This document shows, in pieces, positions 5,348 through 16,497 of a DNA stretch of 30,513 nucleotides. How positions within the stretch are numbered: the first letter of the stretch is position 1; each line of letters opens with the position of its first letter. Source of the DNA: a virus (Duplodnaviria; Heunggongvirae; Uroviricota; Caudoviricetes). The notes beneath the pieces are model-generated. The model made no database searches and was not told the origin of the DNA. It was given only the letters and a program-made list of their open reading frames with translations. The DNA lies in IMG/VR virus record IMGVR_UViG_2778261535_000002; one strand, 5' to 3'. The position numbers and the translations under genes are program-made.

Positions 5348-6088
5348 TTAACTGTCGGTGACGGTGATTTCTGCAACCGCAGCAAGTTCACCATTACCGG
5401 ATACAACCGGAATGTTGACCTTGCCTGCAGCAACGCCGTTCACGGTGATGGTCATACCGCTGACCGACACGGTGGCTTTTGTTTTATCCGCAGACACCGC
5501 ACGGAAGCTCTTGTCGGTTGCGCCCTCCGGCTGGAATGCCACGGTCAGCGTGGTGCTCTGCCCTTTCACCACCGAAGTGCTGGCAGGCGTCACGGTCATG
5601 CCGGTTGCCGCTGTTACCGTGCTGCGATCTTCTGCCATCGACGGACGCCCCACGTTGGTGACTTTCACCGTGCGGGTGATCACTTCCTTCGCCGTCACCG
5701 CCTTACCGATACTGCTGACCCAGCCGCGGAACACATCGACCGTGCCGTTCGGGAAGCGGATTTTATAGGCACGGGTATCCCCTTCATTAAACCACGCCAG
5801 CAGCGCCTGCTGCCCCTGCTCTCCGGGCATCCACGCCAGCGTGAAGCTGGTATCTCCGGCAGATTTCTGCCCCTGCCCGGTCGCAGTCCAGTCCGCATCT
5901 TCATCATCGAGATAGCTGTCGTCACAGGACTCAGCGGTCAGTTCGCCGGGCGTCAGGTCTTTAACTTTTGCCAGACGCAACCAGTCAACGTCTGAAAGCG
6001 GATTCGCATAAGGGTTACCGCTCCCCTTATAAACCCACAGGGTGGTCCCGGCACCTTTCACCGGCATTGTAGGATTTGGTACAGGCAT
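5348..6088 (-). CDS. V: major tail tube protein V
   Basis: ORF 5348..6118 trimmed to the [16 protein letters not shown] start, giving 246 aa as in lambda V. Confidence 0.85.
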
Positions 6089-6095
6089 AGCGTCC

Positions 6096-6491
6096 TCACA
6101 TTTCATAGGTAATGACATAAGTCAGATCGGCTGAACTCCACAGGCCCGCATCATCGTCGCGCCGGTAGTCATAGCCGCTGGCCACCATACTGGTGATCAA
6201 ATCTGACAGTGCCGGGATATCACTCATCACCGGATAAATCCGGGACTCCATCCACGCATCCAGCTCTGAATCCGGCACCTGAGCAGGCAGGAAAACTTCA
6301 ATATGCAACTCCGCCTGCCAGGTATCGCTGTCCAGCTCTTCGCCCGTGTATTCAGCGCCGGTGAGATAAACGGCAATTGCCGGAAAATCCGCCTCATCAA
6401 AAACAGCGGGGCGACCATCAAAAAGCGTCGCCCCGGTGTCATGCTTCTCCAGTGCATCCAGTACGGCTGCACGGAGTTCAGTATGTTTCAT
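6096..6491 (-). CDS. U: tail terminator protein U
   Basis: 131 aa ORF, same length and position as lambda U. Confidence 0.85.
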
Positions 6492-7879: not shown

Positions 7880-8905
7880 TTACGCCAGTTGTACGGACAC
7901 GAACTCATCAGGGTCAGCCAGCAGCATCAGCGGTGCTGACTGAATCATAGTGAACTCACGCGCCGGATCGCCGGATGTCTTCCAGTTTTTCGGATAACGG
8001 GGAGACGCATTAATACCCTCACTCAATGCATCCGCATCCTGAATACAACCATAGGTGCGCAGACCGCGTGCCTGAGTGTTCCCCAGTACCATCGTGTTGT
8101 CCGGCAGAAAGTTCTTTTTGACGCCGTTTTCCACGTACTGTCCGGAATACACGACGATGGCCACATCGCCATACATCCCCTTATAGGACACCGCTTTACC
8201 CAGGTCTTTTACCGCTGTCTCCAGCTCGGAATGAGAGCCGCGACGGGTATCCAGCTTCTCCCTGACGGCTTTGAAGGAACGGAACAGCGCCCAGCCTTTC
8301 GGATCAAACACGATGATATTCACCACACCGCTGGCGTTCAGCGCGTAGGCTTCGATATCGTCGGTCGGGTCATACGTGGACTTGTCGCGATTGCTCCACT
8401 CCGTGCCGCCGGACTGTGTGATGTTATTCGCCTCACTGCGGCCCATATCCACCTCAACCGGATCGAAGGCTTCACCGGTCATGGTGTATTTGCCCTTAAG
8501 CACAGCAGAAACGGCCTGCATCTCTTCGACCTGAGCAATGGCAAGCTCCTCGTCTCGCATGTTCTGCATGATGATGCGACGGCGGCGGTAAGCCGGGTCC
8601 GCCAGATTCTGTGGATCTTCATCCGGCAGGCGACGCAGGGTCATCTGCGGATTCACCTCATGCTTGGGCTTGACATATCCCGGTGTAAATTCAGAGGTGG
8701 AGCCGCCACGGGAGCGGATAACCTCACCGGAAACAATCGGCGAAACGTACAGCGCCATGTTTACCAGTCCCGGAATTTGTGAGAGATAGACTTTCTCCGT
8801 GGTGAAGGGATAGCTCTCACGGAAAAAGAGACGCAGAAACAGCGGATCAAACTTAAATTTCTGCTCATTTGCCGCCAGCAGCTGGGCGGTTGTGTACATC
8901 GACAT
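7880..8905 (-). CDS. E: major capsid protein E
   Basis: ORF trimmed to the MSMYTTAQLLAANEQKFKFDPLF start (341 aa); recalled lambda E sequence. Confidence 0.9.
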   Translation of the reverse strand: MSMYTTAQLLAANEQKFKFDPLFLRLFFRESYPFTTEKVYLSQIPGLVNMALYVSPIVSGEVIRSRGGSTSEFTPGYVKPKHEVNPQMTLRRLPDEDPQNLADPAYRRRRIIMQNMRDEELAIAQVEEMQAVSAVLKGKYTMTGEAFDPVEVDMGRSEANNITQSGGTEWSNRDKSTYDPTDDIEAYALNASGVVNIIVFDPKGWALFRSFKAVREKLDTRRGSHSELETAVKDLGKAVSYKGMYGDVAIVVYSGQYVENGVKKNFLPDNTMVLGNTQARGLRTYGCIQDADALSEGINASPRYPKNWKTSGDPAREFTMIQSAPLMLLADPDEFVSVQLA

Positions 8906-8960
8906 AAAAAAATCCCGTAAAAAAAGCCGCACATGCGGCCTTTAGTGATGAAGGGTCAGG

Positions 8961-9293
8961 TTAAACGATGCTGATTGCCGTTCCGGCAAACGCGGTCCGT
9001 TTTTTCGTCTCGTCGCTGGCAGCCTCCGGCCAGAGCACATCCTCATAACGGAACGTGCCGGACTTGTAGAACGTCAGTGTGGTGCTGGTCTGGTCAGCAT
9101 CAACCGCCAGAATGCCAACGGCAGCACCGTCGGTGGTGCCATCCCACGCAACCAGCTTACGGGTGGAGGTATCCGGCATCAGCGGGGTCATTGCAGGCGC
9201 TTTCGCACTCAATCCGCCGGGCGCGGTTGCGGTATGAGCCGGGTCACTGTTGCCCAGCGGCTGGTAATGGGTAAAGGTTTCTTTGCTCGTCAT
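8961..9293 (-). CDS. D: capsid decoration protein D
   Basis: ORF trimmed to the [12 protein letters not shown] start (110 aa); recalled lambda D sequence. Confidence 0.9.
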
Positions 9294-9302
9294 AAACATC
9301 CC

Positions 9303-9908
9303 TTACACTGGTGTGTTCAGCAAATCGTTAACGGCATCAGATGCCGGGTTACCTGCAGCCAGCGGTGCCGGTGCCCCCTGCATCAGACGATCCAGCGCAG
9401 TGTCACTGCGCGCCTGTGCACTCTGTGGTGCTGCGGCCAGAATGCGGCGGGCCGTTTCCACGGTCATACCGGGGGTTTCGGCCAGCACGCGGGCCTGTTC
9501 TTCGCGTCCGTGAGCCTCCTCACAGTTGAGGATCCCCATAATGCGGCTGTTTTCTGCCGCAACCGCAGCGGTGATCTGCGCGTTCACGTCCGGCTGCGCC
9601 GCGCTGGCGTTTTCGCCCTCCGTCGCTGGCACCACGTCAGTAACGTCAGCCTGCGAAGCAGTGGCTGAAACAGTTGTTGATTGAGTCTCTTTGGTCATTC
9701 GCCCTCCTGAGAGACGGGATTTACGTGCATCCAGTGCATCACGCATAACGGTGATCGCATCGGTGCTGTTGACAAGTTCATCAGCCAGTCCGGCATCAAT
9801 GGCCTCCTGACCGCTGTACACTGCAGCCTCGGTATCCAGCACAGCCTGCACGGACAGGCCGGTATATGCCGACACCTTCTGCGCAAACATCCGGCGGGTT
9901 GCATCCAT
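9303..9908 (-). CDS. Nu3: capsid scaffolding protein Nu3, in-frame internal start within C
   Basis: In-frame Met at C residue 239 (MDATRRMFAQKV) gives the C-terminal 201 aa, as in the lambda C/Nu3 nested arrangement. Confidence 0.7.
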   Translation of the reverse strand: MDATRRMFAQKVSAYTGLSVQAVLDTEAAVYSGQEAIDAGLADELVNSTDAITVMRDALDARKSRLSGGRMTKETQSTTVSATASQADVTDVVPATEGENASAAQPDVNAQITAAVAAENSRIMGILNCEEAHGREEQARVLAETPGMTVETARRILAAAPQSAQARSDTALDRLMQGAPAPLAAGNPASDAVNDLLNTPV

Positions 9909-10622: not shown

Positions 10623-14303
<3,681 letters not shown>

Positions 14304-14329
<26 letters not shown>

Positions 14330-14849
14330 TCAGCAACCCCGGTATCAGTTCATCCAGCGCGGCTGCTTTGTTCATGGCTTTGATGATATCCCGTTTCAGG
14401 AAATCAACATGTCGGTTTTCCAGTTCCGGAAAACGCCGCTGCACCGACAGGGGGATCCCGTCGAGAATACTGGCAATTTCACCTGCGATCCGCGACAGCA
14501 CGAAAGTACAGAATGCGGTTTCCACCACTTCAGCTGAGTCTCTGGCATTCTTCAGTTCCTGTGCGTCGGCCTGCGCACGCGTAAGTCGATGGCGTTCGTA
14601 CTCAATAGTCCCTGGCTGGAGATCTGTCTCGCTGGCCAGCCGCAGTTCTTCAACTTCCCGGCGCAGCTTTTCGTTCTCAATTTCAGCATCCCTTTCGGCA
14701 TACCATTTTATGACGGCGGCAGAGTCATAAAGCACCTCATTACCCTTGCCACCGCCTCGCAGAACGGGCATTCCCTGTTCCTGCCAGTTCTGAATGGTAC
14801 GGATACTCGCACCGAAAATGTCAGCCAGCTGCTTTTTGTTGACTTCCAT
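14304..14849 (-). CDS. Nu1: terminase small subunit Nu1
   Basis: 181 aa ORF starting MEVNKKQLADIFGASIRTIQNWQEQGMPV, recalled lambda Nu1; adjacent to cos. Confidence 0.9.
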
Positions 14850-15075
14850 TGTTCATTCCACGGACAAAAACAGAGAAAGGAAACGACAAAGGCCAAAAAG
14901 CTCGCTTTCAGCACCTGTCGTTTCCTTTCTTTTCAGAGGGTATTTTAAATAAAAACATTAAGTTATGACGAAGAAGAACGGAAACGCCTTAAACCGGAAA
15001 ATTTTCATAAATAGCGAAAACCCGCGCGCCTGACGCCCCGTAGCCTGCCGGATCGCTGGAAAGGACCCGCAAATG
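14850..15075 (-). other. cos: cos site: cosB (about 14850..15026), cosN 12-mer (15027..15038), cosQ side (about 15039..15075)
   Basis: Flanks match recalled lambda left-end and right-end sequence across the junction; the 12-mer between them is CGCCTGACGCCC on the + strand. Confidence 0.75.
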
Positions 15076-15236
15076 ATAATAATTATCATCTACATGTCAC
15101 AACGTGCATCTACGCCATCAAACCACGTCAAATAATCAATTATGACGCAGGTATCGTATTAATTGATCTGCATCAACTTAACGTAAAAACAACTTCAGAC
15201 AATACAAATCAGCGACACTGAATACGGGACAACCTC

Positions 15237-15431
15237 ATGTCAACGAAGAACAGAACCCGCAGAACAACAACCCGCAACATCCGCTTTCCTAACCAAATGA
15301 TTGAACAAATTAACATCGCTCTTGATCAAAAAGGGTCCGGGAATTTCTCAGCCTTGGTCATTGAAGCCTGCCGTCGGAGACTAACGTCAGAAAAGAGAGC
15401 ATATACATCAATTAAAAGTGATGAAGAATGA
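15237..15431 (+). CDS. hypothetical small protein, possible ribbon-helix-helix DNA-binding fold
   Basis: 64 aa ORF; basic N-terminus then RNIRFPNQMIEQINIALDQKG...NFSALVIEACRRRL, resembling a CopG/Arc-type strand-helix-helix pattern; weak GGGA upstream of the ATG. Confidence 0.4.
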   Translation: MSTKNRTRRTTTRNIRFPNQMIEQINIALDQKGSGNFSALVIEACRRRLTSEKRAYTSIKSDEE

Positions 15432-15595: not shown

Positions 15596-15802
15596 TCAGT
15601 CAACCACCAGGGAATAATCCTTCATATTATTATCGTGCTTCACCAACGCTTCCTCAATTGCTCTGAATGCTTCCAGAGACACCTTATGTTCTATACATGC
15701 AATTACAACATCAGGGTAACTCATAGAAATGGTGCTATTAAGCATATTTTTTACACGAATCAGATCCACGGAGGGATCATCAGCAGATTGTTCTGTATTC
15801 AT
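15596..15802 (-). CDS. hypothetical protein (lambda right-end small ORF equivalent)
   Basis: 68 aa ORF at the position and size of a small ORF near the lambda right end; AT-rich. Confidence 0.5.
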
Positions 15803-16086
15803 TTTGTCGCTCCATGCGCTTGCTCTTCATCTAGCGGTTAAAATATTACTTCAAATCTTTCTGTATGAAGATTTGAGCACGTTGGCCTTACATACATCTG
15901 TCGGTTGTATTTCCCTCCAGAATGCCAGCAGGACCGCACTTTGTTACGCAACCAATACTATTAAGTGAAAACATTCCTAATATTTGACATAAATCATCAA
16001 CAAAACACAAAGAGATCAGACCAGATTGAAACGATAAAAACGATCTTGCAAACTACGCACTCTCATATCATATGGAAGGTTTATCT

Positions 16087-16497
16087 ATGGATCAGGTAGT
16101 CATTTTTAAACAAATATTTGATAAAGTTCGAAACGATTTAAACTATCAATGGTTTTATTCTGAGCTAAAACGTCACAATGTCTCACATTACATTTACTAT
16201 TTAGCCACAGAGAATGTTCATATTGTATTAAAAAATGATAATATAGTGTTATTAAAGGGCCTAAAAAACATTGTGTCTGTCAAATTTTCAAAGGATAGGC
16301 ATCTTATAGAAACGACCTCTAATAAGCTGAAATCCAGAGAGATCACATTTCAGGAATACAGAAGAAACCTTGCTAAAGCAGGAGTTTTTCGGTGGGTTAC
16401 AAATATCCACGAACAAAAAAGATATTACTATACCTTTGATAAATCATTACTCTTTACTGAAAACATACAGAGCACATCACAAATATTTCCACACTAA
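16087..16497 (+). CDS. hypothetical protein, possibly DUF1398/YbcV-like
   Basis: ORF 16072..16497; start moved to the MDQVVIF Met at 16087, which has GGAAGG upstream; AT-rich moron-like gene. Confidence 0.45.

Follow-up and report, generated by a model that had tools for sequence, protein, structure and literature searches.

The lambda-like prophage sequence IMGVR_UViG_2778261535_000002 (30,513 nucleotides, analysed over its whole length and called the window below) carries, beside cos and on the strand opposite to the late genes, a small gene of the DUF3950 (YlcI/YnfO) family. We conclude that its product is likely to be a small dimeric DNA-binding protein of the ribbon-helix-helix (RHH) type, encoded in an antisense transcription unit of its own and acting as a transcriptional regulator. 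The frame is under selection at the protein level, profile comparisons, none of them decisive, point to RHH proteins, and in relatives carried by phage satellites operator-like repeats upstream of the gene co-vary with residues of the predicted DNA-reading part of the protein.

The open reading frame beside cos is the lambda-type copy of ylcI

The open reading frame (ORF) starts with ATG and occupies positions 15237..15431 on the + strand; its translation in the ORF listing of the window is MSTKNRTRRTTTRNIRFPNQMIEQINIALDQKGSGNFSALVIEACRRRLTSEKRAYTSIKSDEE, 64 amino acids (aa). It is antisense to Nu1 and A on one flank and to the lysis genes on the other, the window being reverse-complemented relative to the usual lambda map. 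Placed by alignment and by the cos coordinates of lambda, the lambda right end begins at 15039, and from there onward the DNA is 97% identical to it. Between the cos end and the ATG there are 198 nt, the ATG being 169 nt past a cosQ-like heptamer, and the lambda counterpart of the frame is complement(48109..48303). A preliminary description of this DNA had noted a 64-aa antisense ORF about 200 bp from cosN in DNA resembling the lambda right end; location, orientation and surroundings are all as it stated, and the two peptide strings that it quoted are present.

All three models of the DUF3950 / YlcI-YnfO family were matched above threshold, namely Pfam DUF3950 (PF13132; 62.3 bits, cutoff 25, E 3.8e-17), NCBIfam NF041551 (YlcI/YnfO, YlcI_YnfO_N; 33.2 bits, cutoff 30) and PHROG 949 (E 3.3e-33), a group without known function. 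The ORF is a genuine gene. It is the same gene as ylcI of DLP12 and ynfO of Qin in E. coli K-12, which have the same position, divergent from a Nu1 homologue across cos, and differ in nothing essential. The lambda protein is identical to that of L013, a prophage copy from E. coli to which RefSeq genomes give the name ylcI, and the window protein is 97% identical to the lambda and E. coli copies, from which it differs by E30D and W40L.

DNA of ylcI is found in 3785 of 5426 complete E. coli genomes (∼70%, often in several copies; 8369 places), where it is annotated ylcI or YlcI/YnfO; none of these genomes has the allele of the window, the best match being 99.0%. The family is narrow, with 125 representatives (50% identity) among 1.84 billion proteins, the genuine ones all from Enterobacterales, and most copies are 51–77 aa long. 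The preliminary description knew of no annotated gene at this place. This is true of the lambda records NC_001416 and J02459, which have no feature at complement(48109..48303), but not elsewhere: newer lambda-like records carry the annotation, RefSeq uses the name 'YlcI/YnfO family protein', and ylcI/ynfO is annotated in thousands of genomes. Gene and family are already catalogued, so that 'overlooked' fits the old lambda records only. In the literature we found the YlcI/YnfO names only in gene lists and no functional study.

The first 50 codons form a conserved coding module

Since a 4-kb stretch holds 42 ORFs of at least 30 aa, a length of 64 aa is not significant by itself; it is conservation that lifts this ORF above chance. 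Conservation was assessed after lambda control-DNA contamination and noisy reads (see below) had been left out. The window copy and that of phage BP-4795 are separated by a synonymous rate (dS) of 0.98 and a non-synonymous rate (dN) of 0.073, and the window copy differs from that of PPyecE by 25 synonymous and 9 non-synonymous changes over 50 codons. Against the copies in Shiga toxin (Stx) phages the dN/dS ratio is 0.03–0.07, with synonymous sites saturated and the protein nearly unchanged. Across seven intact copies the variable sites are distributed 8/7/29 over the three codon positions. The ylcI frame is under strong purifying selection; the preliminary description had proposed conservation of the intact frame as a check, and the frame is maintained in all these copies, with one frameshifted copy, in phage 1717, considered below.

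The window and BP-4795 copies are 85% identical over codons 1–47, against a random level in both flanks (27% upstream of the ATG and 29% beyond codon 50), and the blastn similarity to Stx phages spans query positions 138–278, that is, from the ATG to codon 47. Because identity to the Stx phages drops at both edges, the conserved unit corresponds to the first 50 codons. The C-terminal tail falls into at least three unrelated types among the copies. We conclude that ylcI behaves as a self-contained mosaic module.

The conserved part of the protein probably folds as an RHH domain

The gene and the parts of the protein, with the evidence for each, are as follows.

15237..15431, + strand: ylcI-like gene of DUF3950 / YlcI-YnfO, with 64 codons and a stop (family models, dN/dS)
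15237..15272, + strand: codons 1–12, N-terminal arm of basic character, MSTKNRTRRTTT, without structure in the predicted monomer
15273..15290, + strand: codons 13–18, RNIRFP, proposed ribbon strand (alignments A2 and A9; hhalign)
15291..15332, + strand: codons 19–32, predicted helix A (AlphaFold2/DSSP, block pLDDT ∼70–75)
15333..15386, + strand: codons 33–50, GSGN turn and predicted helix B, NFSA[W/L]VIEACRRRL (AlphaFold2 helix 37–60; alignments)
15387..15428, + strand: codons 51–64, C-terminal tail, variable; other types of prophage have unrelated tails in its place

Residues I15, R16, F17 and P18 are invariant or nearly so in alignments A2 and A9. In A9, which comprises 38 diverse members, R16, F17, N36, F37, S38, V41 and C45 are invariant and all are present in the window copy; A44, W40 (Leu in the window copy) and I15 are nearly invariant, the last of them fully so in A2. 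An AlphaFold2 (AF2) model of the monomer built from 14 sequences (predicted local distance difference test score, pLDDT, 65) shows coil at 1–18, a helix at 19–32, a turn and a helix at 37–60. The model, which contains no strand, resembles an RHH subunit without its partner; the strand of an RHH protein forms only in the dimer.

In a search of the family profile against all PDB sequences, the best match was 9kkd_A, a CopG-family RHH protein (E 0.035), with the strand and both helices in register. Using hhalign, the same three elements aligned with relatives of 9kkd_A at E 9e-5 and a probability of 58–59%, whether the 14- or the 38-sequence alignment was used, and the strand and helix A aligned with relatives of Arc at E 0.003–0.018. 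In these alignments the proposed ribbon strand falls on QFNVYLP of the CopG-family protein and on FNLRWP of Arc (NIRFP on NLRWP), whose sequence was checked against the PDB before use. Weaker signals came from a HicB-like PHROG (E 0.0057), from a single weak RHH_6 match among the Pfam RHH models, and from Foldseek, which listed NikR, Arc, ParD, CopG, TacA, MazE9 and VapB, all insignificant at E ≥0.8. A single-sequence search of the PDB gave no match, and the CopG match was lost with a larger family profile, probably because the satellite proteins have a long loop. Every structural or profile comparison that returns matches returns RHH proteins, in register, and none is decisive singly.

Likeness to the RHH repressors (Arc and Mnt of P22, CopG, MetJ, the RHH domains of antitoxins) extends to size, to the basic arm and two helices, to the strand of alternating polar and hydrophobic residues that ends in proline (NIRFP versus NLRWP in Arc), and to the Gly/Ser/Asn turn before helix B. 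The family differs from them in that the sequence similarity is marginal, at the E value and hhalign probability given above, and in that the helix B signature NFSAWVxEAC is specific to DUF3950. Thus the strand-helix-helix resemblance to Arc/CopG/MetJ-type regulators proposed in the preliminary description finds support in profile matches with the proposed register and in the covariation described next, whereas the structure prediction answers it in part only, the strand being missing from the model. The conserved first 50 residues probably fold as an RHH domain, an assignment for DUF3950 that we consider likely and supported, short of proof.

Upstream repeats co-vary with the arm and strand of satellite relatives

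Distant homologues (35–45% identity) are found mostly in P4-like elements and in PICIs (phage-inducible chromosomal islands), where the gene lies antisense between int-alpA and the primase operon; some others belong to plasmids that have modules of this kind, and a small number to chromosomal islands. Across Enterobacterales the homologues have good ribosome-binding sites. The DNA upstream of the satellite genes contains direct repeats, (G)GTG-N6-CAC. Counted from the ATG, two of them lie near −100 and −78, with a spacing of 23 bp (22–26), and a third copy at about −30 overlaps a −10-like element, TATAGT. The repeat zone extends from about −105 to −25, and after it comes the invariant sequence ACACGTCAA. 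Within the 12-kb loci searched, each locus's own core recurs in near-exact form almost exclusively upstream of DUF3950, and the pattern was upheld in 138 further loci from metagenomes and viral contigs. Two or three repeats are present in L087 (4520–4700, with an additional inverted copy at −192), L050, L056, L049, L055, L053, L065, L090 and many of L091–L228; example DNA for a satellite DUF3950 protein, that of L056, is GGTGCACATACACC.

The N6 core is constant within a locus and differs between loci. It co-varies with protein positions 5, 9, 12 and 14, as can be seen from the following pairs.

Tyr or Phe at 12: core TTTAAA
Thr12-Gly14: core CACA(A/T)A
Lys12-Asn14: core TGCGCA
Lys12-His14: core TGCACC
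Thr12-Lys14: core CGGCCA

Excess mutual information, expressed per bit of column entropy and calculated from 47 unique protein/operator pairs, is 0.8–2.1 in the arm and strand, against ≤0.6 in helices A and B, in the loop and in the tail, which is highly variable. Since shared ancestry alone should raise all variable columns, this contrast suggests that arm and strand read the repeats directly. Residues 12 and 14 and the invariant R16 occupy alternate positions, with I15 and F17 interleaved; in an RHH ribbon, the side facing the DNA is expected to look like this. As in RHH repressors, arm and strand residues of the satellite relatives vary with tandem operators, which are spaced by about two turns of the helix and overlap the promoter of the gene itself. 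DNA reading by strand and arm at repeated subsites, a hallmark of RHH proteins, is indicated by covariation, and in the satellite subfamily only. We regard this covariation as the best evidence for both fold and mechanism, and infer from it that the satellite relatives would bind operators at their own promoter and regulate themselves. Chromosomal homologues from Pantoea, Tatumella, Salmonella and Rouxiella have no common upstream repeat.

In their arrangement the satellite relatives also recall immunity modules such as lambda cI-OR and the Stl system of staphylococcal pathogenicity islands (SaPI): the gene, in divergent or antisense orientation, has alpA-int on one side and the primase operon on the other, and three putative operators with locus-specific cores about 23 bp apart are matched by co-varying specificity residues. 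The likeness is restricted to the satellite relatives, as the lambda-type copy has no such operators, and the folds differ, RHH as against helix-turn-helix. The PICI protein Rpp was considered as a relative of the 64-aa DUF3950 protein and rejected, since its architecture, a winged helix-turn-helix N-terminal domain with a coiled-coil dimerisation domain in ∼139 aa (PMC6739421), does not fit.

One satellite protein stands apart. In a P4-like element (L087, 4714–5103), the 129-aa protein P0213 joins DUF3950 to a C-terminal region matching the N-terminus of small terminase subunits (Terminase_2, E 1.7e-6). As this fusion is a single case among 102 distinct proteins, it was left unused as evidence of function.

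The region between cos and the lambda-type gene contains a Fur-box-like site

The features of the cos-proximal DNA upstream of the window gene are listed below.

15039..15236: stretch from the cos end to the ATG, 198 bp, nearly invariant among lambda-type prophages
15062-15068: cosQ-like AGGACCC
15069..15087, + strand: Fur-box-like sequence, 16/19 consensus matches, in the divergent region between cos/Nu1 and ylcI, beside cosQ
15100..15073, − strand: promoter-like GTGACA-16-TATCAT, 10/12 matches to sigma-70, overlapping the Fur box and facing cos/Nu1
15124-15131: CACGTCAA, 106–113 nt before the ATG
15135..15167: inverted repeat ATCAATTATGACG-N7-CGTATTAATTGAT, 70–102 nt before the ATG, 13-nt arms 85% complementary, candidate operator

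By its position, the 198-bp stretch must hold the predicted ylcI promoter, though scans gave no convincing sigma-70 match or operator there. It contains none of the satellite-like direct repeats. The element CACGTCAA, which in satellites is invariant beside the promoter-proximal upstream operator, occurs in the window as often as expected by chance. Two ACGT-centred 7-mers have similar positions in the window and BP-4795 (TAACGTA, −58 versus −62; ACGTGCA, −135 versus −143), which in the tests run is not above chance either.

The Fur-box-like match is unique in the window and had no equivalent in 100 shuffles. In E. coli K-12, the homologous sites upstream of nohA and nohB rank with the strongest of the predicted Fur clusters, and Fur shifts the nohA site in gel-shift assays in vitro (Chen et al. 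2007, PMC2189734). That study assigned the sites to the noh genes and never mentions ynfO or ylcI. We find that both sites fall in the divergent region shared with ynfO/ylcI, and their assignment to the noh genes may need revisiting.

ylcI is antisense to the late genes at the lysis/packaging junction

In the lambda-type order, Nu1 and cos are followed by ylcI on the opposite strand, then by the convergent ybcW, and then by a DUF1398 gene and bor on the ylcI strand. The neighbours in the window are as follows.

12404..14329, − strand: terminase A
14304..14849, − strand: Nu1
15027..15038, − strand: cohesive-end 12-mer, cosN (alignment with the lambda right end and prophage cos regions)
15596..15802, − strand: ybcW-like gene (lambda 'lambdap79'), 68 aa, convergent neighbour (PHROG 657)
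16072..16497, + strand: DUF1398 gene (ybcV/ydfO-like), next gene on the ylcI strand (Pfam PF07166, E 2e-45)

In prophages of the YnfO type (L034, L035, L037, L038, L041), DUF1398 follows the DUF3950 gene at ∼40 nt on the same strand. Stx-type phages have an unrelated, HK97-like packaging module (HNH, TerS, TerL), and there the DUF3950 gene, antisense and with a strong ribosome-binding site, separates the lysis module from the packaging module, its distance from the start of HNH being 41 bp; in BP-4795 an intrinsic terminator is located ∼130 nt downstream of the gene. It was antisense to its neighbours in 6/6 annotated phage records inspected; in phages ylcI always lies antisense to the surrounding late genes, at the lysis/packaging junction. 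A survey of E. coli RNA-seq data reported overlap of convergent ybcW and ylcI transcripts in at least half of the samples (PMC12288877), which implies that ylcI has a promoter of its own.

A model for YlcI action and its alternatives

We propose that the conserved domain consists of the basic arm, the short strand RNIRFP, which would pair with its counterpart in a second subunit, and a pair of helices. The dimer would read DNA with its arm and ribbon and, to go by its relatives, repress its own promoter region, which in the satellite relatives bears two or three locus-specific putative operators. In lambda-type prophages the protein would be made independently of late transcription, from a promoter whose predicted place is the 198 bp between cos and the ATG, and its target may lie in or near the divergent region that contains the Fur site and the promoter-like site directed toward cos/Nu1; position suggests both.

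Several observations weigh against this proposal. The structural case is weakened by the AF2 monomer model, which is of low confidence and lacks the strand, by BLASTP against Arc, which gave no alignment, and by residue 40 of the window copy, which is Leu (15354–15356) and not the Trp found in at least 90% of the family (NFSAWV). The co-varying operators are limited to the satellite subfamily, which is 38–45% identical to the window protein, and part of the covariation could reflect shared ancestry. No GTG-N6-CAC was found within 1.8 kb of the window ORF. The upstream DNAs of the lambda and BP-4795 types share no more 7–8-mers than expected from shuffling, and these two unrelated upstream contexts serve nearly the same arm sequence. 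Scans of the window for sigma-70 promoters gave no convincing match on the + strand, and the gene has a weak Shine-Dalgarno sequence. Lastly, the copy of Stx2 phage 1717 (L086, 3501–3659) is frameshifted after about codon 30 and ends, after 52 aa, in an unrelated tail. This copy is a pseudogene in an otherwise functional phage, and ylcI is dispensable on that account.

There is next to no chance that the ORF is fortuitous, or that its conservation stems from a DNA or RNA element. Short ORFs are abundant, and the lambda-type copy has only a weak Shine-Dalgarno sequence and no evident promoter; however, the low dN/dS, the excess of third-position changes and the existence of homologues recognisable at the protein level, with good ribosome-binding sites, point the other way, and Rfam returned no match for the ylcI region even at E ≤1. 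The substitution pattern effectively refutes this explanation. It likewise disposes, together with the coordinates, of the suggestion in the preliminary description that a non-expressed ORF overlaps the cosQ signals: the ORF lies outside the cosQ–cosN–cosB elements, and its conservation is of the protein type. The same description left open whether the product was a regulator or antitoxin-like, of which the former is supported and the latter is not. As a type II antitoxin, YlcI would pair with the product of the downstream DUF1398 gene (ybcV/ydfO-like). Antitoxins are numerous among RHH proteins, ParD, TacA, MazE9 and VapB appear in the Foldseek list, and the YnfO-type prophages have the two genes in tandem. 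Yet in the window and in lambda ybcW separates them on the opposite strand; BP-4795-type phages have no DUF1398 and a terminator follows instead; the gene is solitary in satellites, on plasmids and in chromosomal islands; and a PADLOC search gave nothing. A conserved, co-oriented toxin gene next to DUF3950 was not found, the neighbour being variable or missing across contexts, and only the DNA-binding domain is conserved, not the C-terminal tail that would neutralise a toxin. An antitoxin role is therefore very improbable.

The position next to packaging genes invites the idea of a packaging accessory, a protein that binds near cos or to terminase and modulates cos recognition or cleavage, or excludes foreign cos DNA. 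The gene does adjoin two unrelated types of packaging module, Nu1/A in lambda and HNH/TerS/TerL of the HK97-like kind, and P0213 fuses DUF3950 with a Terminase_2-like domain. Against this, the gene is transcribed opposite to the late operon and hence is not co-expressed with terminase, its distant homologues do not lie beside packaging genes, the fusion is solitary, and the known PICI redirector, Rpp, is a winged helix-turn-helix protein and not a DUF3950 protein. Minimal cos fragments without the ylcI region package normally, which also counts against such a role, and we regard it as quite unlikely. A small but real chance attaches to ylcI being an iron-regulated lysogenic-conversion gene, or 'moron', perhaps together with the leftward DUF1398 and bor genes, under the Fur site by cos. 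The Fur box is 150 nt upstream of the ATG, its K-12 homologues are strong Fur clusters, an oligonucleotide with the nohA site was shifted by Fur in vitro (PMC2189734), and the leftward orientation is that of bor. However, the only good promoter match overlapping the Fur box faces cos/Nu1, away from ylcI. Like the morons bor and lom of lambda, ylcI is small, antisense in the late region, dispensable and bounded by mosaic junctions at the gene ends; it has its own terminator in one context. Morons are defined by a demonstrable promoter of their own and expression in the lysogen, for which the present evidence is the RNA-seq survey of the K-12 paralogue, and the ylcI product differs in resembling a regulator and not a surface or fitness factor. 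Such a role is compatible with the RHH regulator proposed here, since it concerns how the gene is regulated and not how its product acts.

The RHH regulator model can be extended to a joint reading of the family in which DUF3950 proteins are miniature repressors of programmable specificity in the mobile elements of Enterobacterales. They would be the so-far-missing resident-state repressors of satellites, with a separate operator 'immunity' type for each, and would act as gates to the primase/packaging operon; the lambda copy, divergent from a Fur-controlled promoter facing cos, may gate transcription of packaging genes or engage in cross-talk with resident satellites. The lambda end that carries ylcI is the one that enters the cell first. 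This extended scheme is unlikely.

Other features of the window and of database records

The cohesive-end 12-mer of the window, CGCCTGACGCCC, differs at 5/12 bases from AGGTCGCCGCCC, the lambda-type sequence present in all aligned prophages, and there are more changes just to the right of cosN (15039–15060). Full-length matches to 14940–15100 did not exceed 95.0% among the 5426 E. coli genomes or 94.4% in the phage collection. The cosN variant of the window appears, from these comparisons, to be rare or unsampled.

The lambda counterpart of the DUF1398 gene is 47042..47575 (lambdap78), on the strand opposite to the late genes. It is labelled 'head protein' in NC_001416 and PHROG 413 and yet belongs to the DUF1398 (YbcV/YdfO) family, which makes the label doubtful. 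In the record vB_KppS-Ant (LR881103.1, L089), a DUF3950 homologue on the − strand (9012–9185) lies antisense within a 324-aa + strand 'hypothetical protein' (8578–9552); this coding sequence, which runs over the antisense gene and the promoter of that gene, has probably been called in error. A 58-aa homologue is encoded at 5995–6171 in both Salmonella enterica subsp. diarizonae and subsp. arizonae (L046 and L048). Its neighbours are, we presume, a SopB-like inositol phosphatase with its chaperone and a PipD-like peptidase, which would place it inside Salmonella pathogenicity island 5 (SPI-5).

The lambda right end was also encountered in assemblies of unrelated organisms such as Streptomyces, Staphylococcus, Synechocystis and Xanthomonas (L004–L033, L036, L039, L040, L042, L044), as ∼3.5-kb contigs or whole 48.5-kb genomes whose size fits sequencing control DNA. 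Some lambda sequences are deposited as 'plasmids' (H141–H147, H150, H151), and many database 'homologues' of YlcI are noisy reads of lambda control DNA.

Implications

As far as our searches go, DUF3950 as a family of RHH-type repressors, the co-varying operators of the satellites and the link to the Fur sites are new, and the mechanism is a modest inference. The reference annotation of the best-studied phage is without a conserved, selected gene 200 bp from cos, and the RHH assignment gives the y-ome gene ylcI/ynfO a testable function. The covariation between operator and protein makes the satellites a ready system in which to study the encoding of DNA specificity by arm and ribbon residues. 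DUF3950 is also a candidate resident-state repressor of Gram-negative phage satellites which, if true, would be of more interest than the gene in the window itself.

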